Source: Cyanophyceae cyanobacterium (lineage in GTDB: Bacteria; Cyanobacteriota; Cyanobacteriia; Cyanobacteriales; JBHJGN01). Taken from it: a stretch of 58,774 bases of DNA. Position 1 is the first letter of the stretch, and every line of letters starts with the position of its first letter. A model generated the notes under the pieces. It did not search any database. It had not been told where the DNA came from and was given only the letters and a program-made list of their open reading frames with translations. Below are positions 15,124 through 50,107 of this stretch, one piece after another. Position numbers and translations under genes: made by a program. The stretch covers positions 1 to 58,774 of the forward strand of contig JBHJGN010000033.1 of NCBI GenBank assembly GCA_050331735.1, read 5' to 3'.

Positions 15124-15129
15124 TGGGGT

Positions 15130-24300: not shown

Positions 24301-24445
24301 GGGCAGCCCGTAGCGCCTCTATCTGAAGCGCGCCGTGCAGTCGCATCGTACACTGAGCAGGAAGCACGTTCCCCGTAGCTTGCTGCTTCCAGATGTGTTG
24401 TTGAATGGGGGAAAGTTTGTAACCCGTAATGGCAGAAGAATGCAT
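21305..24445 (-). CDS. NRPS: interface (degenerate C)-A(Asp)-T
   Basis: LPALCADSKT replaces HHxxxDG; A code DLTKLGHVGK (Asp); T GGHSL. Confidence 0.93.
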   Translation of the reverse strand: MHSSAITGYKLSPIQQHIWKQQATGNVLPAQCTMRLHGALQIEALRAALLAIADTHEIFRTTFEQTPGAKQPLQVVKNKGAVSWQQVDLSGLSLTEKETAIAQFRESERCQWHLERLPLLRALLVKLNREAERKHWLLLTLPALCADSKTYEILCGELCQHYGQGTLRTQEVQYVQFAEWQNQLLTETDAEAIAARSFWQQDFSPLLLPPLRYRHFQQNSFTPQVRRFSLDADLAQALVRSESLETLLLTSWLVLLWRYAGKSAFTIGVYCDGRQEELTLTCGPITRSLPLSIQLESSTPFSALLRQVEMKQRTLAAWQDYVPNDLLPPSLPVGFEFIARPKALTVNGVRFELTERDIYPDRSELRLTAIQERQGVSVALHYDEAWIDAKVIAEWEQQLPDLLRSVIANPIAAIAQLNAPQRRGQNQCFIPPEDCIHHRFERQAALTPDRVALVVEEQQLTYRELNHRANQLAHSLKQLGAAPEVPVALYLEHSPELLVALLAVLKAGSAYLPLEPALPLDGVNFRLRDAQVPLLVTQKSLFREEFVPLTALVLDGEAAPNIAQQPETNPTAAVTPDNLAYLIYTSGSTGQPKGVAVAHCQLLSYLDSIVERCQLPAAAHYGVVSTLAADLGHTTLFASLCRGGTLHLIAPERAADAQAFSATCRQQPLDCLKIVPSHLQALLNCPDSQAILPCQCLILGGETCHWSLVEQIRDSAPYCRIFNHYGPTETTVGAIAGALEWEALDSKIAVTVPLGRALAHTQIWVLDEHLHPVSMGVPGEIYLGGAGVARGYWQRPSLTAQRFIPNPFADVPGDRLYRTGDWARTLPNGTIEFLRRTDLQVKLHGFRLELGEIEAHLGRHPDLQQAVVQLRKNDSNHPQLVAYIVPTEGNGEQATSTSALREFLQQFLPTYAIPNHFVFLSTLPLTPNGKVNRQTLPAPEIRVEASEYLAPQSPTEEAIAAIWSQLLGVEKVGVGDNFFELGGHSLLATQVLSRLHETFAVELPLRQVFEAHTVAEMAAVVEAAVLAEIEALSDEEAQNLMENGHE

Positions 24446-24480
24446 AAGCAGAAGGAGGCAGAGGACAGGAGGAAAAGCGT

Positions 24481-33210: not shown

Positions 33211-36200
33211 CCGTCTGCCCTCCGTCTAAGGTCAATGATGCCCCCAGCTCAGAACGGTCCGGTTCTCCGCTGCCATCGAGTTCTTCAAGCACCGCCCCAT
33301 CGATTTGAGCGGCGATCGCCTCCGCGATTGCTTGCGCCAGGGCTGCCACCGTCGGTTGCTCAAATAACGTTCGTAACGGCACGTCCACCGAAAAGCCTTC
33401 CCGCACCCGCGTGATCGCCTGAGTGGCCAGTAGAGAATCTCCCCCCAGCTCGAAAAAATTGTCCTCAACCGAGATCTCCTGCCGTTGGAGCACCGCTTTC
33501 CAAATGTCGGCTACAGCTTGCTCTAGAGCGTTACGGGGCGGCTGGCGCTCGGCAGGAGCGGGGGCGGTAAAGCTCAAGTCCTTCTGGAGAGTGCGCCGAT
33601 CGACTTTCCCATTGGCGGTGAGCGGCAACCGCTCCAGAGGAACATAGGTTTGAGGAACCATGTAGACGGGAAGTTTGCGAGCGAGGTAGTCTTTGAGGGG
33701 AGCAGGGGTGAACGAGCGCACGGCTGAGGGTCCGCGGACCAAAAACACATCAAACCCCAAACGATCGGCGGCGGTATTTAGCTGTAACCGCTGCACCTCG
33801 CTAAATCCGGCATTTAGCAGAGCCTGTTGCCACTGTTTTCGAGATAGCAACGGATGGTGCTGTCGCAAGGACTCATCTTCAAAGCGATCGAACCCCTGCT
33901 GTAGTCCCATCGTTAGCTCGAAGGCACTCTGAAACTTCGTTTCTTCGAGCAGCAGCAATACGCCCCCTGGTCGCAGGAGCGATCGCACATGGCTCAAAGT
34001 TTCGGCAATATTGCGGGTGGCATGGAGGACGCTAGCGGCGATGACGACATCGAAGCTATGCAGCTCGTAGCCCTGGTTTTGAGGAGGCTTCTCCAGATCG
34101 AGCCGCCTAGTTTGCAGGAACGGATACTCGTAATTCTGCTCAGCTAGCTGAAGGAAGTAGGGAGAAATATCGGTGAATACGTAGGTTGTGCGTTCTGTCG
34201 GTAACAGCGGCAAAACGTGAGTGGTCGTTGCCCCCAACCCCGCGCCAACTTCAATCATCCGTAGCGGTGCATCGGACGGCCACCCCTCTACTAAAGCGGC
34301 GATCGCTGTACGCATCACGGCATGACTGGTTTGGAACTGCTGCTGGTACACTTTAGGAACGGCTGCGGCTGTATAGATTTGAGCAGAATGACGCTTTTCC
34401 GTGAGGATGTCCGCCAGATGGGTGGCGATATCGGTTAACAGGGCGAGCTCTGCTTCTCCCAGAGCTAACGACTGACGGGCGCTGGTGTGGATTTGAACCA
34501 GCAACTCCGGCGGTAACTGCTCCGGGAGCGATCGCACCAAGAGATAGTCGCTGCCGACTTTCAGGTATCCGTGACGAACCAGTTCCCCAAGCGCACGACG
34601 AGTCCAGCGGCGGTAGCGGGGGGAAATCTGACTGCGCTGCATCAGCCCATCGAGGGAGTAGCGCTCGTCCCTAGCATCGCCCTGCCAAATCCCTAACCGC
34701 TGTAGCGCGACACCAACAGCGCAGATATAGAGCTGTTCTAACTCCTGCCAAAACGCTAACATCTCCTCAGCTCCCGTCTCGCCGATTTGGAGTTGGGAAG
34801 CTTTCTCTACCCAGGTTTGCCAACGGCTGAAGCTATCCGGGGCATCCTGCTGCACCCGCACCGTTGCGCCGGAGTCTGCTGCCAGCAGCACGAAGGCGAC
34901 CAGTTTCCGTTCCCCACTGAGCACCACCGCCCGCTTGACTTCTGGGTGCTGTTCGAGAACCGTCTCGATTTCCCCCAGTTCGATGCGATGACCGTTAATT
35001 TTAACCTGGTCGTCAGCCCGTCCGAGAAACTCAACATCTCCGGTGGGTAGATAGCGTCCCAAATCGCCGGTGCGATACAGGCGCTCTCCGGTACGGGGAT
35101 GGACGATGAAGCTGGCTGCGGTTTTCGCCTCGTCGCGCCAGTAGCCCTGAGCTAGCCCCACCCCGCCGATGTAGAGCTGTCCGGTGACCCAAAGCGGGCA
35201 GGGTTCGAGGTGGTCGTCAAATACGTAGAAGCGTTGATCAGCCAGAGGTTTGCCGTAGGGAATACTCGTCCAGTGCGGCTCGACTTCGTCCACGGGATAA
35301 ACAATCGACCAGATCGAGGCTTCTGTAGCACCGCCCAAGCTGATTACTTGAGCACTAGGGCTGAGCGCTCGGATCTGGTTGGGAAGGCTGAGGGGCAGCC
35401 AGTCGCCGCTGAGCAGCACTAACCGCAGGGATGGCAGCAGGCGCTCAGAACGGTGGTTTCTGTCGGCCACTAACATCTGCATTAAGGTCGGAACGGAGTT
35501 CCAAATGGTGACTTCCTCACGGACGATTAACTCTCCCCAAACGGCAGGATCTCTCGCCGCATCTGCGGGCGGCATGACGATCGTTGCCCCCGCCGCTAGC
35601 GTTCCGAAAATGTCGTAAACCGACAGGTCGAAACTTAACGAAGAAAGGGCAAACACGCGATCGCTCTCGCCGATCTCGAACCGCTCATTGATGTCCAAAA
35701 TCGTGTTGACCGCGCCGCGATGGTCGATGGCTACCCCTTTGGGTGCGCCGGTGGAGCCGGAAGTATAGATGACGTAGGCTAGATCGGTGGCTGCCTGTAC
35801 AGACAGGGAGAAGGAAGCAGAGACGGTGGGCAAGGCAGTATCAATGGCTAGCGTTTGCAGTCCAGGAGGAAACGTCCCCTCGCTCTGAAGCCAGCTTTGG
35901 GTTAGTACGATGCTCACCTCACCCCGTTCAAGCAGATGCCAGCGACGCTCCTGGGGCAAACACGGATTAACGGGCAGATACGCGGCTCCAGCCATGAGAA
36001 TTCCTAAAGCGGCAACAACTTGCTCCCACCCTTTTTCCATGGCGATCGCCACTAGCTGATTGGGTCGGACGTTTTGATGGCGCAGGTATTGAGCGACTCG
36101 TTGGGCTTGAGCGAGCAGTTCTCCGTAGGTTAAGGTCAGCGAGGAGGTCACGATGGCTGGATGCTGAGAACGAGCCTCGGCTTGGCTCATGAAGAGGGTA

Positions 36201-39200
36201 TGAAGCAGCGCGTCCTGCTGAGAAGAGGCGGTTGGTTCGGCTGAGGGCGCGTCGGGGAGGAGAGCGAACCGCTGTTGCTGCCACGCCTCCGGTGCCGTTG
36301 CCAGGCAGTGTAACAGTTGCTCGTAGGCAGCGAACATGGCTGCCACTGTTCCTGGCGGGAATAACTCCTCCACCGCATCCCAATTGAGCACCAGCGCTCC
36401 TGCTTCTTCATAAACCTGGTGGTCTAGCCAGACCTGGGGGGTTTGGGCAATGCCGTAAACCATCTCCCCCAGCCAAGCGGTAGAAAATGCCGAGTCGCCC
36501 TTAAGCTGAGGGGTGGCTAACAAGCTAGTAAACACTACTGGCATGGTGGTTTCTGAGGATTCAGACCGCGCCAGGTCTCGCATCACTCGGACTCCGTTGG
36601 TGTAGCTGTGTTCTAAGTCTTGCCAAAGCTGCTGCTGTAACTGCTGCGCTCGCACCTCAAAGCACTCTATAGCGGTGTAATCGACAGCGAGTAACGTCAG
36701 CGAGGTAAAATCTCCCACCACCTGCTGAACCTGGGGGTGAATCGGCAAACGGTTAAAGGTGGTGAGGTTGAGGGTAAAGCGCCGCGTCTTGCTCCACATG
36801 GCTAACACTTCAGCGTAGGCAGCGACGAGAATGGCGGAGGGAGTCAGTCCAGCGCGGCTGCCATTCTGTTGCAGCTTCTGCCAAGTTTCCGCCTTCAGCT
36901 CGAACGTGCGGCGAGTAAAGCGCGGCTGCTGGTGTTGGGCAGGCGCGATCGCCAGCGGCAGTTCTGGAGCGCGGGGCAGTTCCCGCAGGCGGTTTTGCCA
37001 ATAGGTCAGCGAGCGCTGGTACACCTCAGACGACTCAAACCCTTTCACCGCCAGCACGTAGTCTCGGAACGACAGTTCTAGCGGCGGCAGGGATGCCTCT
37101 AAGTTGTGATAAAGCTGTCCCCATTCTTGGCAAAGCAAGCCCAAACTCGCGCCGTCGACGAGGAGATTGTCAAAGCTCAAGCACACCCTAACCCGTTCGT
37201 CGAGACGCACTGCCCGCACTGTAAACAGGGGCCATTGACCCTCGGCGTGAATTTGATGGGAGAGATGCTCGCGCAGCTCGACCAGTTGGCGCTCCCGCTC
37301 TGCTGGCGCCGCCGTCCGCAAATCGAGAACGTCAATGGTGTAGGGCGGGACGGAAGCTAAAATTTGCTGCTGTCCGTCGGGCAACACGATCGCCCGTAAC
37401 ATATCGTGGCGGTCGATGAGCTGTTGAAAAGCCTTGCTGAGGCGATCGCCATCAAGATTTTCTCCCTCAAATTCGGCATAGACATGAGCCGCAATGTTGC
37501 CCATGTCAAACAAGCCGCGCCGTCCGAGCCAGTAGGCTTGCTGAATATCGTTGAGCGGAAAAGGTTGGTGGCGTTCCGGTGCTGGTTTAAGCTGTGGCAG
37601 AGCCGTGGTGGGGGTGTCGGCGAACCCGGCGAGAATCCGCCTCGACAAAGCTGCTATATCAACGCTCTCCAGCAGGTCCGTGAGCGGAATCGTGCTGGCG
37701 AAGCTCTTTTCTAAGTCAAACTTCAGCTCTAGCGCCACAATTGAATCTAGGGCGAGGCTACTGAGGGGAGTGTCTGGCGCGATCTTATCGGGAGCGATGC
37801 CGAGGGCGGTAGCAAGGCGATCGCCCAAATCAGCGGCTAATCGCGCCTGTCGCTGGGCTGGATCAATCGCCAGCAGGGCCGTTCGCGTCAGCGACGCTTC
37901 TCGACGGGAGGGGAGGATGAGGTCGGACTCAAGTGACGCGCCCCGTTCGGCTAAGGCACTCCAGTAACGCTGTCGTTGGAAGGGATAGGTCGGCAGCACA
38001 ATCCGCTGACGAGAAAACCCGCGCTCAAACCCGACCCAATCGACTTTGGCCCCCTGTTGGTATAGCTGGCTGAGGTCGGCGAGTAAAGTTTCCCAAGTAG
38101 CCCGCTGGGGATGGATGTTGAGGGACTGATATTCCTGGACAGACCGCAGCGGCGGACTCTGAGAACCAGCCGTTCCGCCCAGATTCTGCCAGCGTTCGAG
38201 AACCTCGACTGGGGTAAGCATCTGTCCGGTACGACGGCACCATAGTGGACAGACGGGAGTTGAAGTGGCGGCAACGGGAAGACTTGCGTTCGTAATCACT
38301 GATATTCCTTGTTCCAAGCTGAAAACTCCTGCCACACAAGCCGCGACGATTTCTCCAACTCCTTCCCCCCAAACGCCATCGGGCTTTATTCCCCAAGTCT
38401 TCCAGAGTTCGGCGAGGGCATATTCGACAACGAACAGCATCCAGGGGGCGGCAGGAGGGTCTACCGGAGAAGCTGGATAGAGACGGTCGAGGACAGCCCC
38501 TTCGTGGCATTGAGCCAATAAGGCGAGACAACGAGTGAGCGCCTGTCGAAAGGTTGGAGATGTTTTGTAGAGCTGACGACTATCCACCACTGAGGATATC
38601 GGGTGGGGGAAGGCGAAGACGAGCGGGGGGGATGCAAGCGAGGCGGTGGCTCTGCTTGCCAAGGACAGAGACTCCGTTAACTGCTGCTGCAAGGATGAAA
38701 TTGAATCTGCTACCCAAGCCTGTCGGTACTGAAAATGCGATCGCCCAACTCCAGTCGTAAAACAGAGATCGCCGAGATCCAGTTGCGGACGATCGCTCAG
38801 ATACTGTTGAAACCGTTCGACCAACTCCCGCAGGGCTTGAGGGGTTTTGGCCGATAAGCTCAGCAGATGAAGAGGACGGTCATCAGCTTCGCTTTGGGAT
38901 AGCGTTTGCGGTTCTGGGGCGGCGCGGACGACAACGTGGGCGTTTGCCCCGCTCATTCCAAAGGAGTTAACTCCGAAAACAGGATGCTGAGCAGCGGGTA
39001 AGGGAACGAGAGTGGTGGGGATGCGAGCGGGAATATCGTCGAGAGCAATTTCAGGATTGAGGTGCTGGAGGTGGAGGTGAGGCGGCAGCGCCCGCTGCTG
39101 TAAGGCCAGCACCACCTTGATCAGGCTGGCTAACCCGGAGGCGGTTTCCGTATGACCGATGTTGGTCTTCACCGAAGCGAGCCAGAGGGGAGCATCGGGC

Positions 39201-40336
39201 GATCGCCCTTCCTGGAATACCGCCCCCAGCGCCCGCACTTCCACGGCATCGCCGATGGGGGTTCCGGTTCCCTGGGTTTCCACATACTGCACCTCTGCTG
39301 GCTGGACCCCGGCTTGGCGGAGTGCCTCTCGCACAACCGCTTGCTGGGCGGAGCCGTTGGGAATCGTTAAGCCGCCGCTGGCTCCACTGTGGTTGGTGGC
39401 TGAACCCGCAATCACCGCTAAAACGTTGTCGCCATCGGCGGTCGCCGCTTGGAGAGGCTTGAGCACGATTGCCGCACAGCCTTCGGAACGAACGTAGCCG
39501 TCCGCTGCTGCATCAAAGGTTTTACAGCGACCGTCCGCCGCCATCATCTGTGTTCGAGAAAAGATGATGTTCGTCTCCGGCGAGAGCATCAGATTGACTC
39601 CTCCCACCAACGCCATCTGACACTCCCGATTGCGCAAGCTCTGACACGCCAGATGGACGGCTGTGAGGGAGGACGCACAGGCAGCATCTAGGGCTAGACT
39701 GGGACCTTGCATCCCCAAAATATACGACAGCCGACCCGCCGCAAAGCAAAATCCCGTCCCAAATCCGGTATAGGGATCGATTCCTGCAAGATCTCGTCCT
39801 CTGGTTTGCAGGTTGGCATAATCCGCTGTACCGATCGCCACATAAACCCCCGTCTGTCGGGTTTTTAAGCTCTGCGGGGCATACCCGGCTCGCTCCAACG
39901 CCTCCCAACTCACTTCCAGCAACAGACGCTGTTGAGGGTCCATCTGAGCCGCTTCGCGGGGACTAATCCCGAAGAAGTCGGCATCAAAACGATCCACCTC
40001 TGAGAGAAAGCCGCCCCAGCGTGTATAGGTTTTACCGGGGGTGCTGGGATCGGGGTCGTAGTAGGCATCCACGTCCCAGCGTTCTGGAGGAACTTTGGTC
40101 ACGGCATGGCGACCGTCCTGTAACAGTTGCCAGTAGGCGGCGGGGTCTTTCACGCCACCGGGGAAGCGGCAACCGATGCCAATGATGGCAATTTCTTCTG
40201 TTGGTGTGTTGCTAACACCGGGGACAGGCTCTTGAGATGATTGAATCGCTTCGAGTTGGTGATAGAGTTCGTCGGCTAGCAGCGCTAGCCGTTTGGGGGA
40301 GAGATCCTTAATGCGATCGAGAAACGTACTACTCAC
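33194..40336 (-). CDS. Hybrid PKS-NRPS: KS0-AT0-ACP-Cy-A(Cys)[MT]-T
   Basis: KS has DAACASS but QGTGT. AT has GEGVG (no catalytic Ser). ACP LDSI. Cy DNLLVDGAS (DxxxxD). Cys-type A domain (DLSVYDIF, LGGATEASIWS). SAM motif IEVGAGLG inserted in the A domain. T GGDSL. Confidence 0.94.
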   Translation of the reverse strand: MSSTFLDRIKDLSPKRLALLADELYHQLEAIQSSQEPVPGVSNTPTEEIAIIGIGCRFPGGVKDPAAYWQLLQDGRHAVTKVPPERWDVDAYYDPDPSTPGKTYTRWGGFLSEVDRFDADFFGISPREAAQMDPQQRLLLEVSWEALERAGYAPQSLKTRQTGVYVAIGTADYANLQTRGRDLAGIDPYTGFGTGFCFAAGRLSYILGMQGPSLALDAACASSLTAVHLACQSLRNRECQMALVGGVNLMLSPETNIIFSRTQMMAADGRCKTFDAAADGYVRSEGCAAIVLKPLQAATADGDNVLAVIAGSATNHSGASGGLTIPNGSAQQAVVREALRQAGVQPAEVQYVETQGTGTPIGDAVEVRALGAVFQEGRSPDAPLWLASVKTNIGHTETASGLASLIKVVLALQQRALPPHLHLQHLNPEIALDDIPARIPTTLVPLPAAQHPVFGVNSFGMSGANAHVVVRAAPEPQTLSQSEADDRPLHLLSLSAKTPQALRELVERFQQYLSDRPQLDLGDLCFTTGVGRSHFQYRQAWVADSISSLQQQLTESLSLASRATASLASPPLVFAFPHPISSVVDSRQLYKTSPTFRQALTRCLALLAQCHEGAVLDRLYPASPVDPPAAPWMLFVVEYALAELWKTWGIKPDGVWGEGVGEIVAACVAGVFSLEQGISVITNASLPVAATSTPVCPLWCRRTGQMLTPVEVLERWQNLGGTAGSQSPPLRSVQEYQSLNIHPQRATWETLLADLSQLYQQGAKVDWVGFERGFSRQRIVLPTYPFQRQRYWSALAERGASLESDLILPSRREASLTRTALLAIDPAQRQARLAADLGDRLATALGIAPDKIAPDTPLSSLALDSIVALELKFDLEKSFASTIPLTDLLESVDIAALSRRILAGFADTPTTALPQLKPAPERHQPFPLNDIQQAYWLGRRGLFDMGNIAAHVYAEFEGENLDGDRLSKAFQQLIDRHDMLRAIVLPDGQQQILASVPPYTIDVLDLRTAAPAERERQLVELREHLSHQIHAEGQWPLFTVRAVRLDERVRVCLSFDNLLVDGASLGLLCQEWGQLYHNLEASLPPLELSFRDYVLAVKGFESSEVYQRSLTYWQNRLRELPRAPELPLAIAPAQHQQPRFTRRTFELKAETWQKLQQNGSRAGLTPSAILVAAYAEVLAMWSKTRRFTLNLTTFNRLPIHPQVQQVVGDFTSLTLLAVDYTAIECFEVRAQQLQQQLWQDLEHSYTNGVRVMRDLARSESSETTMPVVFTSLLATPQLKGDSAFSTAWLGEMVYGIAQTPQVWLDHQVYEEAGALVLNWDAVEELFPPGTVAAMFAAYEQLLHCLATAPEAWQQQRFALLPDAPSAEPTASSQQDALLHTLFMSQAEARSQHPAIVTSSLTLTYGELLAQAQRVAQYLRHQNVRPNQLVAIAMEKGWEQVVAALGILMAGAAYLPVNPCLPQERRWHLLERGEVSIVLTQSWLQSEGTFPPGLQTLAIDTALPTVSASFSLSVQAATDLAYVIYTSGSTGAPKGVAIDHRGAVNTILDINERFEIGESDRVFALSSLSFDLSVYDIFGTLAAGATIVMPPADAARDPAVWGELIVREEVTIWNSVPTLMQMLVADRNHRSERLLPSLRLVLLSGDWLPLSLPNQIRALSPSAQVISLGGATEASIWSIVYPVDEVEPHWTSIPYGKPLADQRFYVFDDHLEPCPLWVTGQLYIGGVGLAQGYWRDEAKTAASFIVHPRTGERLYRTGDLGRYLPTGDVEFLGRADDQVKINGHRIELGEIETVLEQHPEVKRAVVLSGERKLVAFVLLAADSGATVRVQQDAPDSFSRWQTWVEKASQLQIGETGAEEMLAFWQELEQLYICAVGVALQRLGIWQGDARDERYSLDGLMQRSQISPRYRRWTRRALGELVRHGYLKVGSDYLLVRSLPEQLPPELLVQIHTSARQSLALGEAELALLTDIATHLADILTEKRHSAQIYTAAAVPKVYQQQFQTSHAVMRTAIAALVEGWPSDAPLRMIEVGAGLGATTTHVLPLLPTERTTYVFTDISPYFLQLAEQNYEYPFLQTRRLDLEKPPQNQGYELHSFDVVIAASVLHATRNIAETLSHVRSLLRPGGVLLLLEETKFQSAFELTMGLQQGFDRFEDESLRQHHPLLSRKQWQQALLNAGFSEVQRLQLNTAADRLGFDVFLVRGPSAVRSFTPAPLKDYLARKLPVYMVPQTYVPLERLPLTANGKVDRRTLQKDLSFTAPAPAERQPPRNALEQAVADIWKAVLQRQEISVEDNFFELGGDSLLATQAITRVREGFSVDVPLRTLFEQPTVAALAQAIAEAIAAQIDGAVLEELDGSGEPDRSELGASLTLDGGQTDGKSY

Positions 40337-40342
40337 GGCAAT

Positions 40343-43300
40343 CTACCTAGGAGTGGATTGGGACTTTTCTGCAAATAAGCGCTCGACCTCGTCATCGGAA
40401 AGCTGGGCGATGCGGTCGAGAGGTTCATCTGGGGTTGAGGGGGCTTTGGTCTCAGCGGCAGGCGCGCTTGCCCAGCCGAAAATTTCTTGGGCGATGTAGC
40501 TAGAGAGGGCGTTGACCGAGGGGTGCTCGAAGGTGGCAGCCACAGGAATGACCGCTCCCAGACTCGCTTCTAAGTGGTTCTTCAACTCCAGCGCCATCAG
40601 GGAATCCATCCCCAATTCAAACAGTCCCCGCTGGCAGTCGAGGTGGCTCGGTGGCAGCCCCATGACCCTAGCCACCTGAGCCTGGACGTGCTGGCGCAGG
40701 CGAGACTGACGAGTGGCGAAGGGCAGATGGTGCAGTTCCTCCAGCCAGACTCGGTCAGTGCTAGCGGTGTTGGGGTCAGTTCGTGCAGGCGATCGCAGCG
40801 CCTCTAGAAACGGCTGAGCGGCGGCTTGGGGAAACACCTGGAAAAATTCCGACCACGGTACGGGCAAAACTCCCATCTGCGGAGGGACAGAAGAGGCGAG
40901 GAGATATTCGAGCGACCGCAAGCCCTCGGCAGGAGACAGCGTCCAGCCCTCCGGCAACAGTTGCTGCCCTGAGCGAACGTGGCGGGCGCGCATGCCCACC
41001 TCTGCCCAATCCCCCCAATTAATACTGAGGGCGGGCTGACCGAGCTGCGAGCGGTAGTGGGCCAGAGAGTCGAGGAACGCATTAGCCATGCTGTAGCCCC
41101 CAAGCTGTTGTCCCACCGGACCTAGCAGACTCGCCCACGAGGAAAACAGCACAAAGCAGTCGAGATCCCCTCCGAAAATCTGATGTAGGTTCCAACTGCC
41201 CAGTACCTTGGGTCGCAAAACGTTCATCAAGGTGGAGGGAGCGAGCTGAGTGAGGGGCTTTAGCCCTTGAGGAACACCCGCTAAGTGGAACACGCCGCGA
41301 ACCGGAGGACAGCCGCCCTCGCCAACGGTAGCGATCGCCTGCTCAATTTGCTCGCGGTGGCTCACGTCGGCGCTCGCTAGATAGACGCGCACTCCCCGCT
41401 CTTCTAAAGCTTGAATAGCCGCCACTTGTCGCGCTTTGCGGCTGTCGGCGGGCAACTCTGTCCAGGTGGCGCGAGGCGGTAAGGGCGATCGCCCAAGCAG
41501 AATTAACTGCTGTACTCCCTGTTCAGCTAACCACTGGGCGACGAGCAAGCCTAAATCGCCCAGTCCACCTGTAATCAGATAGCTACCCTGGGTAAATGCT
41601 TCCAGCTTGGAGGGAGGTTGATGATGGCGGAGTAACCGGGGGGTATATTGGGTTCCCTGACGGAAAGCAGACATCTCTGAGTTAGTCAGGATAGCTTCGA
41701 GCAGTTCCGCCGCCGCTTGCGTGGTGGAGGCTTGCGGATCGAGATCCACCACTCCCCCCCGACGGTGGGGCTGTTCGACCGCGAACACTTTCCCCAATCC
41801 CCACAGCAACGATTGAGCGAGCGCAACGCTGCTAGAGCTGCTGGCGGTCACAGACTGTCCGCCACGAGTCACCCACCAAATCGGCGCGGACTGAGAATGC
41901 TCCACCGCTTGGAGCAGTTGGAGGGGCAGTTGAGTAACGGTCGCTAACGCCGCGTCCCAGTTGTCTGGGATGGAGTTGAGGACGGGGGCATCGAGTCCCC
42001 ACAGATAGAGGAGACCGTGATAGGACTGGGACAGTAGGGCGGGTAAGGCAGACACGTCCTCACTCCCCGCCAGCGTCGTTACCCGATCGCCCTGCTGCTC
42101 AAAGAGAGGGGTTAACGCGGCGGCAACCCCAGTGCGATCGGCCAAAACGAGCCAGTGCCGCGCCGCTGGTTTGGCAGTTTTTGCCAGCACGATGGCTTGG
42201 GAACACTGGGTTTCGTCTGTATGCCCAATCGCCACCGTATCAACAGCCCAGTGCTGGGCTTGCAGCAGCGATCGCCAGCGCAACGCAGACAGCAAAGGAT
42301 AATCAGGACGCAGTTCTAAGTCCGTAAACCGCCACCACCCTTCAGTTAAGCCAAAGATGAGGTCGAGCCAGCGTTGGGGTTGGGTTCCCTCCAGCAGCAC
42401 TAACAAGCCACCGGATTTCAGTAAGGCTTGAATATGTTGCAGACTCTGTTGCAAATTGGCGGTGGCGTGAAGGACGTTGGCAGCGAGGACGAGGTCGAAC
42501 TGCTGGGGGGCAAATCCTTGGGCTTGAGGAGCTTGCTCGATATCAAGGCAGCGATACTCCACAAAGGGATAGGCAGCGAATTTCTGCTCGGCTTTTTGAA
42601 CGAAGAGCGGGGAGATATCGGTGAAAACATACTCGGTGTGCTCGCTCTTGAGCTGAGGCAGAATCGAGGTGGTTGTTGCCCCAGTGCCTGCACCGATTTC
42701 TAGAATGCGAATTGGGCGATCGCTGGGCTGGTGTTCGAGGGCGAGAGTGATGGCGTACTGCACCAGCTGATTGACCCTGTTGGCGGCAGGAGAGTCCTGG
42801 TAGAGACGCTCAACCGCAGCAAAAGAGCCGTTGGGAAAGAGGACTTGCCGGGGATCGCAACGTCCTTGCAGCACATCAGCAAGAACTTGACCACATCGAT
42901 GCAAAAGCTCTAGTTGGGGGGCATAGTCGGGATATTGGGCTTTCAGCCGAGAAAAAGTTGTCTCAGGGTCGCTGACGAAGGGGCGCTTAACGCTCCACTC
43001 ATCTCCCGATGCTTGGAGGGCACCCACTTCGCTGCCAATACGCAATAACCGCTTAAAGAGGCGCTGGTGGGAATCGACCACTTGAAAGCGGTGCAGCAAG
43101 TCTGCGGTTGTCACCGCTCCGGGCTGCGCAATGCCTCCAAGCTGCTGCAATGCGTGAAGAACGTACTCGGCGCTTAACGCTTCAAGCTGGGGGAGGAACG
43201 CTCTATAGTCTTCCCACTGTTGCTGCATCGACGGTTGGGCAGCGTAGGCGCGGGTGCGATCGCCAATAACGTCAGGGTCTAACAGGGAGGCAGAATCCTT

Positions 43301-45007
43301 CGTTCGTGATGTCGGTTCTTGACGTTGGCAAGGCTGCCAGTCAACGGTGTAAAACCAGTTGTCAGCGCTCTTGGTCGGAACTGAAGAATCAACAAACGCT
43401 TGCTGTAAGCGGATTCCCGTTACTTCCATCAGGAGCTGCTGACCGTCGCGGTCGAAAATCCGCACGTTGCCTTCGTAGTGAGGTGCCGCAACCAGAGGTG
43501 ACGTGAGTTGAGCATGGCTCCAGAGGCGAGCGCTGAGCGGGGCATAAACCTGTAACTGCCCCAAGCCAACGGGTAAATATTGGCGGCGGTTCTCCATCAG
43601 GGGGAGACAGGCGAAAAAGACCTGTAAACAAGCATCCAGAAAAGCAGGATGGGTGTCATATCCCGGCTCCGAGAGGGATGCTGGCAATCGCACTCTGCCC
43701 AGGGCTTCTCCATCTCTGCGCCAGAGCCGTTCGATGCCCTGGAAGCTCTCACCGAGTTCCACTCCTTGGTGTTGCAGCTGCTGGTAAAACTCCGCTCCTG
43801 ATAACGGTTGACAGCGCGCTTGAATGTCGGCGATGGCAGGCGGCTGCCCTTTAGTGGCGCGGCGGTTTTCTATCGGTAAGGGGGCGCTCTCCGTCTGACA
43901 AGCTCGACGCAGACGGTCGAGGTGGGGCAAGTTGGCTAAAATCAGGTCGGGGTCGGGACCAAAATCGAGCAGACACGCCAATTCAGTGATGCCGATTTGC
44001 TGAAGCTGTTCGACTAAGCCCAAACAGCTTTCTGGCGTTCCCAGTAACGCCCGGCGATCGCTAAAAAACTTCTCGAACACACGGACGGCTAAACTATCTA
44101 GATCGGCTTTGGAGAGAGCATCGACCTGAATATCAAAGCCCCGGCTATAGCTCAACCCCTGGAGGAGATGGATGTGAGATTTCAAATAAGAGCAGTAGGG
44201 TTGGCGAACTTGTTCCCGCACGACATCAAGGGCCTCGCCTACAAAGGTATGCAGAGCTACGGTAATTTCTCCTCCATGAGGATCGAAACCGCAAGCCGCT
44301 CTAGCGCTGCGATAGAGGTCAAGCTTTTGAGCGAGGGCATCCACTTCTTGGTCGAAAAGATGGGTTAACAAATTCGCCCCGCTCTCTCCGGCTTGAATAA
44401 AGGTGTTCGGATTGCTGGCGGCAGTTACCCAAATGGGGAGGGATGTCTGCACCGGAGTGGGGTAGATGCGAACGCTGGCGGGCTGAGCGTTGCCCGCAGT
44501 TCTGGAAATGCTTTCTCCCTGCCAAAGACTCTGCACCGTTTGCATCGCCTGGAGCAGGTCTTGATGGCGGTTACTGTAGCGATCAGGAGCCAGAACAAAA
44601 TCTTGCGGATTCCATCCCGAAGCAAAGGAAACTCCCACCCGTCCCCCCGATAGGTTATCCACCATTGCCCATTCCTCCGCCACCCGAATCGGATCGTGAA
44701 GGGGCAGCACCACACTCCCCGCCTGAAGGCGCACCCGTTGGGTTTCACGCGCGAGGGCAGCATGCAGAACGGCGGGATTGGGGTAGAGACAGCCCAACTG
44801 GGTAAAGTGTCGTTCTGGAATCCAAATGCTGGAAAAACCTTGGCGGTCAGCGTACTGGGCGCTTTCGAGCACCAACCGATATTTATCCGCTCCCAGAGAC
44901 TGCTCGCCGCTGGCAAAAAACATCAGACCAAACTGTATCTCTCGCCGTGGGGCTAGGGTTATCGGTTGGTTTAGGGCTGTTGAAGCGGGGGACTGAGTCA
45001 TGAGCAA
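40343..45007 (-). CDS. PKS half-module: LLM monooxygenase-DH(C-half)-cMT-KR-ACP
   Basis: LLM motifs FGLMFF, WIPERHF, RVAEEWAMVDNLSGGRVGVSFASGW. DH second hotdog HPAFLDACLQ. MT LEIGAGTG. KR ITGGLGDLG and YSMAN. ACP GMDSL. ATG 45001 is an alternative start. Confidence 0.93.
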   Translation of the reverse strand: MLMTQSPASTALNQPITLAPRREIQFGLMFFASGEQSLGADKYRLVLESAQYADRQGFSSIWIPERHFTQLGCLYPNPAVLHAALARETQRVRLQAGSVVLPLHDPIRVAEEWAMVDNLSGGRVGVSFASGWNPQDFVLAPDRYSNRHQDLLQAMQTVQSLWQGESISRTAGNAQPASVRIYPTPVQTSLPIWVTAASNPNTFIQAGESGANLLTHLFDQEVDALAQKLDLYRSARAACGFDPHGGEITVALHTFVGEALDVVREQVRQPYCSYLKSHIHLLQGLSYSRGFDIQVDALSKADLDSLAVRVFEKFFSDRRALLGTPESCLGLVEQLQQIGITELACLLDFGPDPDLILANLPHLDRLRRACQTESAPLPIENRRATKGQPPAIADIQARCQPLSGAEFYQQLQHQGVELGESFQGIERLWRRDGEALGRVRLPASLSEPGYDTHPAFLDACLQVFFACLPLMENRRQYLPVGLGQLQVYAPLSARLWSHAQLTSPLVAAPHYEGNVRIFDRDGQQLLMEVTGIRLQQAFVDSSVPTKSADNWFYTVDWQPCQRQEPTSRTKDSASLLDPDVIGDRTRAYAAQPSMQQQWEDYRAFLPQLEALSAEYVLHALQQLGGIAQPGAVTTADLLHRFQVVDSHQRLFKRLLRIGSEVGALQASGDEWSVKRPFVSDPETTFSRLKAQYPDYAPQLELLHRCGQVLADVLQGRCDPRQVLFPNGSFAAVERLYQDSPAANRVNQLVQYAITLALEHQPSDRPIRILEIGAGTGATTTSILPQLKSEHTEYVFTDISPLFVQKAEQKFAAYPFVEYRCLDIEQAPQAQGFAPQQFDLVLAANVLHATANLQQSLQHIQALLKSGGLLVLLEGTQPQRWLDLIFGLTEGWWRFTDLELRPDYPLLSALRWRSLLQAQHWAVDTVAIGHTDETQCSQAIVLAKTAKPAARHWLVLADRTGVAAALTPLFEQQGDRVTTLAGSEDVSALPALLSQSYHGLLYLWGLDAPVLNSIPDNWDAALATVTQLPLQLLQAVEHSQSAPIWWVTRGGQSVTASSSSSVALAQSLLWGLGKVFAVEQPHRRGGVVDLDPQASTTQAAAELLEAILTNSEMSAFRQGTQYTPRLLRHHQPPSKLEAFTQGSYLITGGLGDLGLLVAQWLAEQGVQQLILLGRSPLPPRATWTELPADSRKARQVAAIQALEERGVRVYLASADVSHREQIEQAIATVGEGGCPPVRGVFHLAGVPQGLKPLTQLAPSTLMNVLRPKVLGSWNLHQIFGGDLDCFVLFSSWASLLGPVGQQLGGYSMANAFLDSLAHYRSQLGQPALSINWGDWAEVGMRARHVRSGQQLLPEGWTLSPAEGLRSLEYLLASSVPPQMGVLPVPWSEFFQVFPQAAAQPFLEALRSPARTDPNTASTDRVWLEELHHLPFATRQSRLRQHVQAQVARVMGLPPSHLDCQRGLFELGMDSLMALELKNHLEASLGAVIPVAATFEHPSVNALSSYIAQEIFGWASAPAAETKAPSTPDEPLDRIAQLSDDEVERLFAEKSQSTPR

Positions 45008-45040
45008 AGCTTGAAAAAGATTTCTAGCGGGGGGTTTCCG

Positions 45041-48000
45041 TTAGTTGAGGTCTGACCAATGCAGAGTCGCCGTGGCGTGCAGAATCCAGGGAGAAGCGGC
45101 GGCGGAGCAGGTGCGGCTGTGAGTTTGAAAAGTGGCGGAGTCGGGGGATTGTTCTAAGAGGGCAATTTGAACCTGACAGTTGCCGTCCCGCGACAGAAAC
45201 AGCGGTTGGTGTAACGCTAAATCTCGCAGTTGGTAGCGACGCTCACCCCAGGTCTCTCGCGCTGCCGCTAAAGCCATTTCGATATAGGCTCCCAGGAACA
45301 GCGTCGGAGTTCCCCATACTTGATGCTCGCCGAGATAGGACAGGCGATCGCCATTGAGGTTAACGGTCCACAGGCGATCACTCGGTCGGTGCGCTAGGGG
45401 GGCTAAACGCTTTCCCAGCAGGGGATGCTCGGAGCTAGCGGCGGACCCAAGAGGTGGTCGCACCGTCGCCGACCGTTGAAACCAGTAAGACTGTCTTTCA
45501 AAGGGGTAGGTGGGCACCGACACTAGCTGACGGCGATAATCGCGGTCAAATCCCCGCCAATCGATCTTGAACCCAGCGCTCGCTAACCGTCCCAAACTCG
45601 TCAACATCACTTGCCAGTCCGATCGGCTGGGGCGCAGGCTTGGCAGCCACTGGCTAGTATCGGCGAGCGCTGGTGGCAAACACTGTCGTCCCAGCCCCAA
45701 CAGCGTGGGCTTGGCACCAATCTCCAGGAACCAGCGGTATCCTTCACGGTGTAGCGTTTCCATGCCCTGGCTGAACCGAACGGGCTGGCGAATGTGCTTC
45801 ACCCAGTATTCAGGAGTGGCGATCGCCTCCGTAGCCCACTGTCCGGTCAGATTACTGACAAGGTTAATTCGGGGTTGAGTCCAGGGAATTTTGCTCGCCT
45901 CTGCTCGAAAAGGCTTCAATACTGGCTCCATCAGAGCGGAGTGGAACCCGTTGGCAACCTGTAGCCGAGTGGTGCGAATTCCTGCGGCGGCGAGGTGAGT
46001 AGCGATCTCCTGCACATCTTCCCGCAGACCCGACAGCACCGTATTGCGAGGTCCGTTAATAGCAGCAATAGCAACGGGCGCATCGGCGACGATAGCGGCG
46101 GCTCGTTCAGCCTCCACCGCCGCAACAACCATCGCACCGTTGTCAGGAAGGGACTGCATCAATCTCCCCCGCGCAGCGACCAGTTTCAAGCCGTCTTCGA
46201 GGTCGAATACCCCGGCTAGACAAGCCGCTACGTATTCCCCAACACTGTGACCCATCACCCCGTCCGGCTGGATGCCCCAACTCTGCCAGAGTTTAGCTAA
46301 GGCGTATTCCAACGCGAACAGTGCTGGTTGGGTATAGGCGGTTTGCTGGAGGAGATGACGATGGGAAGGTTCTGGGTAGAGAACCGCTAGCAGCGAGGGT
46401 TTAAGATCCGCTCGCAAAATGGCATCGCAGTGCTCTAAAATTTTCCGAAACGTTGGCTGGGTTTCATATAATTGTCGTCCCATGTTGACCAGTTGGGTTC
46501 CCTGTCCAGAAAACAAAAAGGCGATTTTCGGCTTCAACTGACCTTGCTTCTGAACGAAACCGAACTCCTCGCCAGCTTTGACCCCTTGGAGTTGTGACTG
46601 AAGGTGTTCCTTCGAGCTAGCCACAAAGCTCACACGATGGGCAAAAGACGATCGCCCAGCATTGGCGGTAAAGCAGATATCTCCAAGGCTGTGGGGTGAG
46701 GTGGAAAGAAACGGACAGTAGCGTTCGACGAGCTGCCGCAGGGCGGCATCAGTTTTCGCCGAGAGGGTTAGCACATGCAGGGGACGTTCTGGGTCATTAG
46801 ATTCCCTTTGCGGGGAAGCGGGTTCGCCTTCTACAACGAGATGGGCGTTGGTGCCGCCAAATCCAAAGGAACTGACTCCAGCCAGCCGTCTACCCCAATC
46901 TTTCCAGGGTTGTCCTTGGGTAGCAATCGTAAACGGAGTCCCGTCGAGGGCGATATGGGGGTTAAGCTCATTTAAATGGAGGTGGGGCGGAATTTCTTGG
47001 TGTTGTAGAGAGAGCACTACTTTAATTAGTCCGGCAATGCCCGCCGCTGCTTCTAAATGTCCGATGTTGGTTTTCACCGACCCGATGACGCACGGCTGGT
47101 GTTCTGGGCGATTCCCCAGCGCCGCCTGAATCGCCTTCATCTCGATCGGATCGCCGAGCGCCGTTCCTGTGCCGTGGGCTTCGACGTACTGAATGTGGGC
47201 AGGGTCAATTCCGGCATTGTTCAACGCCTGCCGAATTGCGGTCTGCTGAGCAAGTCCGTTGGGGGCACTGAGTCCGTTACTGTGTCCATCCTGGTTAATG
47301 GCTGAGCCGCGCACAACCGCCAAGATCCGATCGCCATCGCGCTGAGCGTCCGCTAGTCGTTTTAGAATCACGATACCGCACCCTTCGCTACGCCCGTAAC
47401 CGTCCGCCGCCGCATCGAAAGTTTTACAGCGACCATCTGCCGCCAGCATGCGAGCCTGGGAAAAGGCTACGGTCAGTTCGGGGGTAAGTAACAGATTGAC
47501 TCCCCCCGCTAGAGCGAGGTCGCATTCCCCCTGGCGTAAACTTTGACTGGCAAGGTGAACGGCAACGAGCGACGAAGAACAGGCAGTGTCGATGGCTAGA
47601 CTTGGTCCCTGTAGGTTTAAGCAGTAAGATAACCGATTGGCCGCAATGCTCGCCGCTGTCCCCGTTCCCAAGTAGGCATCAAGGCAAGCCGGCTCCTGTG
47701 CCAGCAACCGAGCGTAGTCACTCCCGCTCGTACCGATAAACACTCCAGTGGAACTTTCGGCTAGATGTTCCGGCGGCGTTCCGGCATGTTCCAACGCTTC
47801 CCAGGCTACTTCTAAAAGCAGACGCTGCTGTGGGTCTATTTTTTCGGCTTCGCGGGGCGTAATGCCGAAGAAAGACGCATCGAACTGAGCGATGTGGTTC
47901 AAAAATCCTCCCCAGCGGGTGGTCATTTTTCCTGGAGTAGGAACTTCAGCATAGTATGCCTCTACATCCCAGCGCTCGCGGGGGACTGAAGTAATGGCAT

Positions 48001-50107
48001 CGCCCCCGGTGTGCAGCAGGTGCCAGAACGCTTCAGGATTCTCGGCTCCTGGAAAGCGGCAGCCTAAGCCGATGATGGCAATGGCTTCTTCTAAAGGGCG
48101 ATCGCTTTTCACCCTCGGTATCTCTGCCTCGGTCCCGTCTGCTAAACGCTGCGAGAGGGCGGCAATGGTGGGATAGTCGTAAAGCAACGTGGGGGAAAGA
48201 CGCTGCTGCAACCGCTGCTCCAGCTCTCCCGAAAGCCTCACGGCGTTAACGGAGTCAATGCCGTAGCTAGCAAAGGATTGATGCGGCTCGATTTGACTAG
48301 GATCTAGGTGCGCCGCGCGGGCTACCTGCTCGACGAGCCATGTTTGAATGCTGGGTTGGGAATTACCGGCTGGTCTGTCTTCCGGCTGCGCCGCAGTCCA
48401 CTCGCCGATGACGGCTAAGGTCTGATCTAAAAACTGCTGTTTACAGGCACGCCGCTGAATTTTGCCGCTCGATGTTTTCGGAATCCCGCCGGGTTTGAGG
48501 AGAGCAATGGCGTATATCGGCAAATCGTGATGGTAGACGATCGCCTCTCGGATTGCCCTAGCAATCTCCTCAACGTTGAGGTTGCGCCACACCTGCCGCT
48601 CGACTTCACTGACAATCACCATTTCTGCTTCTTCAATGGTGAATGCGGCTCCGTTGGCGGCTCGCAGCGCTGGATGAGCCTGCTCTACCGTCCGTTCAAT
48701 ATCTTGTGGGTAGTAGTTCTGTCCGCGAATAATAATTAAGTCTTTGAGTCGCCCGGTGATAAACAGTTCGCCATCGTTGAAAAACCCTAAATCACCCGTT
48801 TTGAGAAACGGTCCCTCGCCCTCGGCTAGATAGGCCTGGAAAGCTTCGGTGGTGGCTTTCGGTTGGTTCCAGTAGCCTTGAGTCACGCTCGCTCCGGCTA
48901 CCCAAATTTCCCCCACGCTATTGGGAGCGCAGGGACGCAAGTCAGGATTAACGACGACGACGTGGGGAGCACCGCGCCCGCAACTGACGAGGGTTTGGGT
49001 GCCCTCGGCTTTATCGCTCACCACCGCGTGATCGCTTCTGAGAGCCTGTTTTTCTACCGTTCGATAGCGGGGCGACGTGTCCTTGTCCCCCCCAGTGACG
49101 AATAGAGTGGCTTCTGCCATGCCATAACAGGGATAGAACGCCGTTTTCTGAAAGCCGCAGTCGGCAAAGGTGGCGGTAAACCGCTCTAAGGTTTCTGCCC
49201 GCAGAGGTTCTGCGCCGTTGAAGGCGACCTTCCAACAGCTCAAATCTAGGCGGGAAAGCATTTCTGGCGAAATCCTCTGGCAACAGAGGTCGTAGGCAAA
49301 GTTTGGTCCTCCGCTCACGGTTGCCTGGGTTTGGGCGATCGCCTGTAGCCAGCGAATCGGCTGCTGAAGAAAGGCAACGGGTGACATAAAGGTGACAGAG
49401 GCAGAGGCGTAGAGCGGTTCGAGCAGCCCACCGATCAACCCCATGTCGTGGTAGGGCGGCAGCCAGCTAACCACCTGACTCTCCGGGGAAAAGCCAAATT
49501 TGTCGTGGATGAGTGCTAAGTTGTGCAGTAAGTTCTGATGGCTCACCATTACTCCTTTGGGAGCCGCCGTTGAACCGGAGGTGTACTGCAAAAAGGCGAG
49601 AGCATCCCCTGTTAGGTGGGGGTCTTGCCATTGAGCGGCTAATTCGAGAGCCAGCGTATCGGTAGTGAGCCAGTCTAACTCCTCAACGCCAAGCTCTTTG
49701 CCCTGGATGTCTGCGCGTAAAGCGTTATTAGTAAGTACAGTGCGGGGCTGTGCGTCTTGAATAATTGCCTGTAAACGGGACAGCGAGCGTCGGTGCGAAC
49801 GAGGCGGATAGAGAGGCACGGCGATCGCTCCAGCATATAAACAGCCGAAAAACGCCGCAACGTACTCAGTTCCGGGGGGGAGCAGCAACACAACCCGCTC
49901 TCCTTGGTTGTATTTGCCTTGGAGATGCGCGGCGATCGCTCGGGCCTGCCGCTCCAACTCGCGATTAGTTAGGCACTGCTCGATCGTTTCGCCGTCTTTG
50001 AGAAACCGATAGGTTTGGCAATTCGGTTGAAACTGGGAGCGATGGCGGAGGAGATCGACTAGAGTCGTTCCTGCACCACAAAATTTTGGGGTTAAACAAT
50101 TGACCAT
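45041..50107 (-). CDS. Initiating FAAL-ACP-KS-AT-DH(N-half)
   Basis: FAAL FLQYTSGST, WLPPYHDMGLIG, YGMAE, PKTSSGKIQR. ACP GIDSV. Active KS (DTACSSS, HGTGT, NIGHLE). AT GHSVG. Ends in the first DH hotdog, HPLLG...EHQVWG. Confidence 0.95.
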   Translation of the reverse strand: MVNCLTPKFCGAGTTLVDLLRHRSQFQPNCQTYRFLKDGETIEQCLTNRELERQARAIAAHLQGKYNQGERVVLLLPPGTEYVAAFFGCLYAGAIAVPLYPPRSHRRSLSRLQAIIQDAQPRTVLTNNALRADIQGKELGVEELDWLTTDTLALELAAQWQDPHLTGDALAFLQYTSGSTAAPKGVMVSHQNLLHNLALIHDKFGFSPESQVVSWLPPYHDMGLIGGLLEPLYASASVTFMSPVAFLQQPIRWLQAIAQTQATVSGGPNFAYDLCCQRISPEMLSRLDLSCWKVAFNGAEPLRAETLERFTATFADCGFQKTAFYPCYGMAEATLFVTGGDKDTSPRYRTVEKQALRSDHAVVSDKAEGTQTLVSCGRGAPHVVVVNPDLRPCAPNSVGEIWVAGASVTQGYWNQPKATTEAFQAYLAEGEGPFLKTGDLGFFNDGELFITGRLKDLIIIRGQNYYPQDIERTVEQAHPALRAANGAAFTIEEAEMVIVSEVERQVWRNLNVEEIARAIREAIVYHHDLPIYAIALLKPGGIPKTSSGKIQRRACKQQFLDQTLAVIGEWTAAQPEDRPAGNSQPSIQTWLVEQVARAAHLDPSQIEPHQSFASYGIDSVNAVRLSGELEQRLQQRLSPTLLYDYPTIAALSQRLADGTEAEIPRVKSDRPLEEAIAIIGLGCRFPGAENPEAFWHLLHTGGDAITSVPRERWDVEAYYAEVPTPGKMTTRWGGFLNHIAQFDASFFGITPREAEKIDPQQRLLLEVAWEALEHAGTPPEHLAESSTGVFIGTSGSDYARLLAQEPACLDAYLGTGTAASIAANRLSYCLNLQGPSLAIDTACSSSLVAVHLASQSLRQGECDLALAGGVNLLLTPELTVAFSQARMLAADGRCKTFDAAADGYGRSEGCGIVILKRLADAQRDGDRILAVVRGSAINQDGHSNGLSAPNGLAQQTAIRQALNNAGIDPAHIQYVEAHGTGTALGDPIEMKAIQAALGNRPEHQPCVIGSVKTNIGHLEAAAGIAGLIKVVLSLQHQEIPPHLHLNELNPHIALDGTPFTIATQGQPWKDWGRRLAGVSSFGFGGTNAHLVVEGEPASPQRESNDPERPLHVLTLSAKTDAALRQLVERYCPFLSTSPHSLGDICFTANAGRSSFAHRVSFVASSKEHLQSQLQGVKAGEEFGFVQKQGQLKPKIAFLFSGQGTQLVNMGRQLYETQPTFRKILEHCDAILRADLKPSLLAVLYPEPSHRHLLQQTAYTQPALFALEYALAKLWQSWGIQPDGVMGHSVGEYVAACLAGVFDLEDGLKLVAARGRLMQSLPDNGAMVVAAVEAERAAAIVADAPVAIAAINGPRNTVLSGLREDVQEIATHLAAAGIRTTRLQVANGFHSALMEPVLKPFRAEASKIPWTQPRINLVSNLTGQWATEAIATPEYWVKHIRQPVRFSQGMETLHREGYRWFLEIGAKPTLLGLGRQCLPPALADTSQWLPSLRPSRSDWQVMLTSLGRLASAGFKIDWRGFDRDYRRQLVSVPTYPFERQSYWFQRSATVRPPLGSAASSEHPLLGKRLAPLAHRPSDRLWTVNLNGDRLSYLGEHQVWGTPTLFLGAYIEMALAAARETWGERRYQLRDLALHQPLFLSRDGNCQVQIALLEQSPDSATFQTHSRTCSAAASPWILHATATLHWSDLN

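Follow-up and report, generated by a model that had tools for sequence, protein, structure and literature searches.

A dehydratase-like fold divided between two genes, with a luciferase-like monooxygenase between its halves, in a cyanochelin-type cluster of a cyanobacterium

Described systems and the locus in the window

Clusters for the cyanochelins were reportedly first described by Galica et al. in 2021. The cyanochelin B cluster has been reported from plasmid 2 of Leptolyngbya sp. NIES-3755 (AP017310.1), from Phormidesmis sp. 146 strains and from Myxacorys almedinensis A (PMC12628792). In that paper CcsAB is labelled FAAL-CP-KS-AT (fatty acyl-AMP ligase, carrier protein, ketosynthase, acyltransferase) and CcsC is labelled Ox-cMT-KR-CP (cMT, C-methyltransferase; KR, ketoreductase), and the 2,3-dihydroxy-2-methyl acyl unit found in the product is attributed to 'Ox'. 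Here we describe the counterpart of this gene pair in the window, by which is meant the whole stretch of 58,774 nucleotides from a Cyanophyceae cyanobacterium (contig JBHJGN010000033.1) that was analyzed. Gene order and domain content identify the locus as the place where ccsAB and ccsC meet in a cyanochelin-type lipopeptide siderophore cluster. A fold resembling a polyketide synthase (PKS) dehydratase (DH) is encoded there in two halves, one at the end of the ccsAB-like gene and the other in the ccsC-like gene, behind a luciferase-like monooxygenase (LLM) domain.

The window and the NIES-3755 locus share the nine-gene order and the domain set, are split at the identical point, and in both the stop codon is in frame with the next gene. 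They differ in stop codon and in spacer, and the identity between the window's protein and CcsC of NIES-3755 (P0031) is only 56% over residues 1-560, the LLM and hotdog part. CcsC of Phormidesmis 146-12 (P0032) and of Myxacorys (P0034) are likewise 56% identical to it, and all three proteins begin with the LLM and are 1532-1536 amino acids (aa) long. In the fatty chain of cyanochelin B, an oxygen-bearing methine stands beside a quaternary carbon that carries oxygen and a methyl group, and the dihydroxylated unit sits on a methylthiazoline; the published adenylation-domain specificities are Cys, Phe, Gly, Asp, Ser, Asp and Gly (PMC12628792).

Related monooxygenases have been studied in other pathways. 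MupA, which belongs to the same NCBIfam family (TIGR04020, 'MupA/Atu3671') as the window's LLM, alpha-hydroxylates a beta-keto thioester bound to acyl carrier protein (ACP), requires an external FMN reductase and, according to the conclusion section, needs the beta-keto substrate to be on its ACP (PMC10952193). Unlike the window's domain, MupA is free-standing, acts in trans and is not nested in a DH fold; docking via ACP and KS0 (non-elongating KS) contacts has been proposed, and nuclear magnetic resonance (NMR) showed the monooxygenase in contact with neighboring ACPs and KS0 (PMC10952193). The closest solved structure to the window's LLM is the Ox domain of the puwainaphycin synthetase PuwE (PDB 6KET), which has been assigned to C-2 hydroxylation of the fatty acyl chain (PMC4219810). 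The PuwE domain differs in following an aminotransferase, between PKS and nonribosomal peptide synthetase (NRPS) modules, and no DH is named there in the accessible text of PMC4219810. LLM domains of the TIGR04020 type have been assigned to alpha-hydroxylation in several pathways (PMC8739492).

The canonical DHs CurF, CurJ and CurK (3kg6, 3kg8, 3kg9) have a double hotdog fold, and their catalytic His and Asp positions are kept in the window. Here, however, a TIM barrel of about 350 residues interrupts the fold, the halves lie on two polypeptides, and two further motif residues, the Tyr of the YGP motif and the Pro of HxxxGxxxxP, are replaced. Separate single-hotdog chains that pair to one double-hotdog unit occur in the mycobacterial HadAB and HadBC enzymes; the enzymes are part of the type II fatty acid pathway and are not known to contain an inserted domain or to dock the subunits of a megasynthase.

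Layout and conservation of the split fold

The preliminary description of this DNA, made from the letters alone, had claimed a DH split in two with an LLM between the halves. Pfam bears this out: only PKS_DH_N is found upstream, and the LLM and PS-DH follow downstream (positions in Table 1). The ccsAB-like protein matches AMP-binding/FAAL at residues 44-413, PP-binding at 590-655, KS at 674-1045 and AT at 1197-1508. The PF21089 profile that follows is covered end to end (1-103 of 103), and the protein terminates 23 residues past this match, with no C-terminal hotdog detected by Pfam. By alignment column, His1595 (codon 45323-45325, minus strand) is the catalytic-position His of HxxxGxxxxP. The motifs HPLLG and EHQVWGTPTLF given in the preliminary description are present in the translation, the His being kept and the Pro of HxxxGxxxxP replaced by Phe.

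The ccsC-like open reading frame (ORF) is 1554 aa long when counted from the TTG at 45005-45007; the ATG at 44999-45001 is the probable start of the gene. Its LLM matches Bac_luciferase at residues 28-341 (E 1.1e-49) and TIGR04020 along the whole profile (all 341 positions; 476.2 bits, the cutoff being 244.45), and its likeness to a TIM barrel follows from a sequence comparison of residues 20-374 with 6KET (E 1.5e-111). The C-terminal hotdog behind it corresponds to CurK DH residues 149-292. The quoted motifs GESFQGIERLW and HPAFLDACLQ are both found in the translation, and the latter contains Asp458 (codon 43634-43636, minus strand), the catalytic-position Asp of DxxxQ/H. PKS DHs carry the motif GYxYGPxF (YGP); the window has GVELGESF, with Leu at the position of the Tyr. 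The YGP motif is kept in three Streptomyces relatives (L019, L039 and L080), and the role of its Tyr in PKS DHs is treated in PMC13638107. The two hotdogs are not contiguous in one polypeptide, as a stop codon and the LLM lie between them.

The distribution of this layout was assessed in a pattern scan with one genome per species, which returned 600 matching stretches, 596 of them confirmed relatives. The best 80 were kept as loci; 21 matched through the C-terminal hotdog and were analyzed, and the other 59, which matched in the LLM only, were set aside. Sixteen of the 21 loci are split just before the LLM and five are fused. PKS_DH_N (Pfam, E <= 0.001) lies directly upstream in 20 of the 21, comprising all 16 split loci and four of the five fused ones, with no match in L010. 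The hosts include Cyanobacteria, Ktedonobacteria, Burkholderia, Streptomyces, Myxococcota, Acidobacteriota and Bacteroidota. When homologs of the LLM and C-hotdog part were sought, matches numbered in the thousands, and in most of those at the top of the list the LLM comes first. Fused forms are common as well. Two of 120 listed near-length matches (P0043, P0051) have KS and DH_N ahead of the LLM, and a search for longer proteins listed many single chains of FAAL-ACP-KS-AT-DH_N-LLM-PS-DH-KR-ACP, of about 2800-2970 aa. Sequence comparison thus establishes the split DH with LLM as a widespread conserved layout that is found in many phyla and is functional in compound-producing strains.

The junction itself reads, in reverse complement, ...AAC TAA CGG AAA CCC CCC GCT AGA AAT CTT TTT CAA GCT TTG CTC ATG, exactly as the preliminary description had given it, with a single in-frame TAA. 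Between TAA and ATG there are 13 sense codons in a single frame with no second stop, and no GGAG-like Shine-Dalgarno sequence is present at the junction. The TAA was checked in a Logan contig of run X1, a separate assembly with 0 differences over 44700-45400 at a word depth of 47; this assembly is not independent of the window because X1 is probably its source sample. A Logan contig of run X2 covers 45039-45219 only, at depth 2.

Two explanations of this stop codon had been put forward together. The first is read-through of the TAA into a single protein of about 3,250 aa, in line with the shared frame, the single stop, the lack of a Shine-Dalgarno sequence, and the NIES-3755 junction, where the stop likewise interrupts a continuous frame. 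When the 16 split loci, the window and NIES-3755 are taken together, however, the frame is kept across the split at only 5 of 18 junctions (those of the window, NIES-3755 and the loci L006, L020 and L071). This is about the third expected by chance, and the in-frame TAA of the window is therefore incidental. The remaining 13 overlap or change frame: six have an ATGA overlap (L009, L011, L019, L021, L039, L080), one a TGATG overlap (L013), three longer overlaps (L001, L002, L016) and three an out-of-frame spacer (L004, L005, L028). The spacers are also not conserved. That of the window encodes RKPPARNLFQALL, whereas the NIES-3755 junction runs ...WIRHATAVLLP, a TAG stop and then QEFLMQFGFMFF, with a non-homologous in-frame spacer of 12 nucleotides (nt; QEFL), so that neither length nor sequence nor stop codon is shared. 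The junction has neither a recoding signal nor a stop codon of the selenocysteine or pyrrolysine type, and we consider read-through very improbable.

The second explanation is a recent break in a gene that had been fused. As its cause we considered a nonsense mutation or an error in the assembly, with a pseudogene left behind. Fused homologs do exist. Nevertheless, the identical split point occurs in 16 of 21 loci and in the cyanochelin B-producing strains, both ORFs (1688 and 1554 aa) are intact, and the separate assembly of the probable source run agrees with the window. The chance of such a break is accordingly put at close to nil. These comparisons indicate that the split is old and not a recent break.

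The same comparisons qualify the view that the architecture is unusual. It is common, with its thousands of matches, and it occurs in a characterized cluster; what stands is that the DH halves go unmentioned in the accessible text and supplement of PMC12628792, where the word 'dehydratase' has 0 occurrences and only the 'Ox' label is used. Both the type of cluster and what its Ox domain does have already been published, while no description of an LLM nested between DH hotdogs, of the nested split-DH layout, or of intersubunit docking by split-domain complementation as a class was found in the literature searched, in which few subscription journals were covered. The palmerolide 'DHt' domain was considered as a parallel and rejected; it is part of another module, and its authors do not regard it as hotdog-like.

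Association and role of the two halves

To relate the halves to a known fold, a fused homolog from Bradyrhizobium (L014, 708 residues) was modeled with a 39-row alignment. The model has a mean pLDDT of 85.6 and a pTM of 0.65, with low confidence at the ends, in a short segment at 219-222 and in the linkers 148-167 and 525-531. With the PuwE Ox domain, 346 of 348 residues are superposed on the model at 172-518 (Z 45.4, rmsd 2.4 A). The superposition of CurF DH (3kg6) bridges the insertion, with 274 of 278 residues aligned over model residues 18-689 (Z 32.2, rmsd 2.5 A), and the DHs of CurJ, CurK and PksJ superpose similarly. In the model, therefore, the LLM is inserted as a domain into the loop that connects the two hotdogs. 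When the split genes are placed on this model, the boundary falls in the first flexible linker, between the N-terminal hotdog and the LLM.

Complex prediction was run three times on the halves from the window itself, of 149 and 186 residues, with an alignment of 22 rows for each. An ipSAE of 0.89 was obtained in all three, as compared to 0.00 for the best of three controls. The mark applied to this score is reached by 116 of 157 solved complexes and by 2 of 215 mismatched pairs; with our own alignments these counts hold roughly. The predicted complex has 109-118 contacts with a partner pLDDT of at least 78, and at least 78% of the contacts are shared between runs. Strand 85-93 of the first half (chain residues) pairs with strand 104-113 of the second, and His1595 touches second-half residues 418 and 422. 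The hotdog halves of CcsAB and CcsC are therefore predicted by this modeling to reassemble in trans.

It is quite improbable that the halves do not associate, with the N-terminal hotdog a vestige and CcsAB and CcsC docking in another way, for example by ACP-KS or LLM-mediated contacts as for MupA. The NMR contacts of MupA with neighboring ACPs and KS0 make such a mode conceivable. A vestige should decay, however, and a full-length PKS_DH_N is kept in 16 of 16 split loci across phyla; the complex score far exceeds its controls, and in the model of the fused homolog the halves come together as a single canonical double hotdog. There also appears to be no room for separate docking segments at the junction, where 23 residues follow the N-terminal hotdog in CcsAB and 25 precede the LLM in CcsC, unlike the tail of about 50 aa behind the ACP at the C-terminus of CcsC. 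Reading of the translations made no docking segment evident at the junction, where no docking-domain profile was searched.

Reassembly in trans, with the flavin monooxygenase thereby placed for alpha-hydroxylation, had been one of the original proposals, and it gains support from the 16 split loci of 21, from the complex prediction, from the L014 fold and from the cyanochelin B acyl unit. The DH-like fold is probably a scaffold and docking interface, with the LLM alpha-hydroxylating the beta-ketoacyl-ACP. Two genes would then encode one PKS module, KS-AT-DH*-cMT-KR-ACP, preceded by FAAL-ACP. After translation the hotdog halves would pair non-covalently into a complete double hotdog, which would dock CcsAB to CcsC and hold the monooxygenase among the processing domains; this docking role we infer from the layout and the models. 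The KS would extend the fatty acyl starter, the cMT would methylate C-2, the LLM would hydroxylate C-2 of the 3-ketoacyl-ACP, and the KR would reduce C-3 to give the 2,3-dihydroxy-2-methylacyl unit, the DH-like fold leaving no double bond. By analogy, extension, C-2 methylation, C-2 hydroxylation and reduction seems the most economical order of steps, and it agrees with the cyanochelin B acyl unit. That the window's LLM would carry out an FMNH2- and O2-dependent alpha-hydroxylation we infer from MupA biochemistry and the cyanochelin B structure.

The main rival to the scaffold is a catalytic DH. In this case KR and reassembled DH would make a 2-methyl-2-enoyl thioester, the LLM would epoxidize or oxygenate it, and opening of the epoxide would give the 2,3-diol; alternatively, the His/Asp dyad would have some other catalytic role in forming the diol. 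The dyad was followed in an alignment of 22 rows (the window and the 21 loci), 17 of them split. Of the 22 rows, 17 have the catalytic-position His; L003, L015, L021 and L033 have Tyr instead, and L010 lacks it. The Asp is found in 18 rows, and the other four, L010, L015, L021 and L033, have Glu. Among the split rows each residue is kept in 16 of 17, the Asp is kept in 119 of 123 database proteins that begin with the LLM, and the predicted complex sets His1595 beside the GESF segment, as in canonical DHs. On the other hand, when hotdog matches 300-520 residues apart were paired in single-chain relatives with the same domain set (LLM-interrupted DHs among P0043-P0151), both residues were kept in only 5 of 24, at least one being missing in the other 19. 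In the window the Tyr and Pro replacements described above also speak against catalysis. MupA, the founder of the family, hydroxylates the beta-keto-ACP directly, and a quaternary C-2, once hydroxylated, cannot be dehydrated. Because the hotdogs persist without the dyad and the product of the homologous module, in contrast to that of a canonical DH module, keeps its C-3 hydroxyl, the family-wide role of the fold is probably structural. A catalytic DH in the window is considered unlikely.

Several observations weigh against the scaffold reading. A purely structural role leaves unexplained why both His and Asp are kept in split forms and why the Asp is kept in the database proteins that begin with the LLM. 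Four of the five rows without the His also have Glu for Asp, and this joint loss hints at a functional dyad, although the losses are not independent events, the rows being kin. The complex score may be memory of the DH fold, because single-chain DH structures have been solved, and would then report likeness to that fold and not binding. The step order is carried over from MupA, which is a free-standing enzyme of the trans-AT type. The compound made by the window's cluster may differ from cyanochelin B, and within the window no flavin reductase was identified. As a bolder reading, we tentatively suggest an obligate heterodimeric double hotdog that serves as the docking device carrying the monooxygenase and in which His and Asp are kept for diol formation or for stability of the interface.

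Cluster, neighborhood and related cassettes

All large ORFs of the window were compared to Pfam and to Fig. S2 of PMC12628792. The order ccsAB-C-DE-FGH-I-J-K-L-M, the domain set and the adjoining siderophore transport genes are those of a cyanochelin B-type cluster (Table 1).

Table 1. Features of the cyanochelin-type cluster in the window.
Feature	Position	Strand	Evidence
ccsAB-like gene, 1688 aa: FAAL-ACP-KS-AT and N-terminal DH hotdog	45041..50107	-	ORF list, translation, Pfam
N-terminal hotdog of DH-like fold, PKS_DH_N (PF21089), residues 1561-1665	45113..45427	-	Pfam, E 4.6e-21
TAA stop of ccsAB-like gene, in frame with ccsC-like gene	45041..45043	-	Sequence; same in Logan contig of run X1
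39-nt spacer from TAA to ATG (33 nt to TTG)	45002..45040	-	Sequence
ccsC-like gene: LLM, C-terminal DH hotdog, cMT, KR, ACP	40343..45007	-	ORF list, translation, Pfam
Luciferase-like FMN monooxygenase domain, residues 26-367	43907..44932	-	NCBIfam TIGR04020, PDB 6KET
C-terminal hotdog of DH-like fold, PS-DH (PF14765), residues 395-536	43400..43825	-	Pfam, E 7e-32
C-methyltransferase domain, residues 769-869	42401..42703	-	Pfam Methyltransf_12, E 4.9e-23
Ketoreductase domain, residues 1141-1336	41000..41587	-	Pfam KR, E 8e-54
ACP, residues 1441-1505	40493..40687	-	Pfam PP-binding
Remaining assembly line: ccsDE, ccsFGH, ccsI, ccsJ, ccsK (TauD), ccsL and ccsM (C-A-PCP-reductase) counterparts	5261..40336	-	Pfam compared to Fig. 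S2 of PMC12628792
ccsDE counterpart: KS, AT remnant, C-A-MT-PCP	33194-40336	-	Pfam
ccsFGH counterpart: two NRPS modules with TauD domain at the end			Pfam
ccsI counterpart: C-A-PCP			Pfam
ccsJ counterpart: C-A-PCP and additional C/E-type domain			Pfam
ccsK counterpart: free-standing TauD			Pfam
ccsL counterpart: C-A-PCP and C/E-type domain			Pfam
ccsM counterpart: C-A-PCP-reductase			Pfam
A, adenylation; C, condensation; E, epimerization; MT, methyltransferase; PCP, peptidyl carrier protein.

Of the AT behind the KS in the ccsDE counterpart, only a fragment is present, covering 16-114 of the 319 profile positions. This remnant agrees with the depiction of a non-elongating KS0 in PMC12628792. 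On the other strand, genes for a TonB-dependent receptor, a periplasmic binding protein and a major facilitator superfamily (MFS) transporter adjoin the cluster (Pfam). In the receptor (50535-53360, plus strand), about 260 residues precede the Plug domain (264-366). AMIN-domain TonB-dependent transporters for cyanochelin uptake are the subject of a 2026 preprint (10.64898/2026.07.30.741596). The cluster is flanked by a piece of an IS66-family transposase (1758-2747, plus strand) and by a RAMP-superfamily (CRISPR-associated) protein (57411-58253, plus strand).

A second LLM of the TIGR04020 type is present in the window's own genome on another contig (locus L090, G000:C4:196923-198032). It lies inside an open frame of 3688 aa, and only the LLM part (query residues 6-388) was matched, without the C-terminal hotdog. 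When this genome and 60 others of the same order were searched, an LLM match at E <= 1e-30 was found in 8 of the 61, and the best match apart from the window's genome has 53% identity.

In the case of the Burkholderia locus L009, a 1467-aa FAAL-ACP-KS-DH_N protein is joined by an ATGA overlap to a 1107-aa LLM-PS-DH-KR-ACP protein. Compared to the window this cassette has no cMT, no AT match and a different junction. No AT was detectable between the KS and the N-terminal hotdog (L009 1628-9351), which suggests that the cassette is loaded by a trans-acting acyltransferase. Occidiofungin has a lipid residue carrying a 5,6,7-triol. Its gene table lists ocfI (3324 bp, 'flavin-dependent monooxygenase') beside ocfJ (4428 bp; PMC9494966). 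The sizes of these Burkholderia contaminans/ambifaria genes agree with the 1107-aa and 1467-aa ORFs of L009, and B. ambifaria proteins of 1107 aa were among the homolog matches. On the basis of size and genus, occidiofungin is likely a second characterized pathway with the split layout.

With the window, a divergent member joins the cyanochelins, a family of photoreactive beta-hydroxyaspartate siderophores; the CcsC encoded here is 56% identical to the characterized one. Its layout shows an extra tailoring enzyme placed inside a module and the module divided between two proteins at the same point. If the tentatively suggested heterodimer reading is true, FAAL-ACP-KS-(AT)-DHn in one protein and LLM-DHc-(cMT)-KR-ACP in the next would form a portable unit that installs 2,3-dihydroxy lipid starters. 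If the halves complement each other, the annotations 'beta-ketoacyl synthase', 'SDR' and 'PpsC' of these proteins would be corrected, and PKS engineers would have a natural example of split-domain docking to copy.

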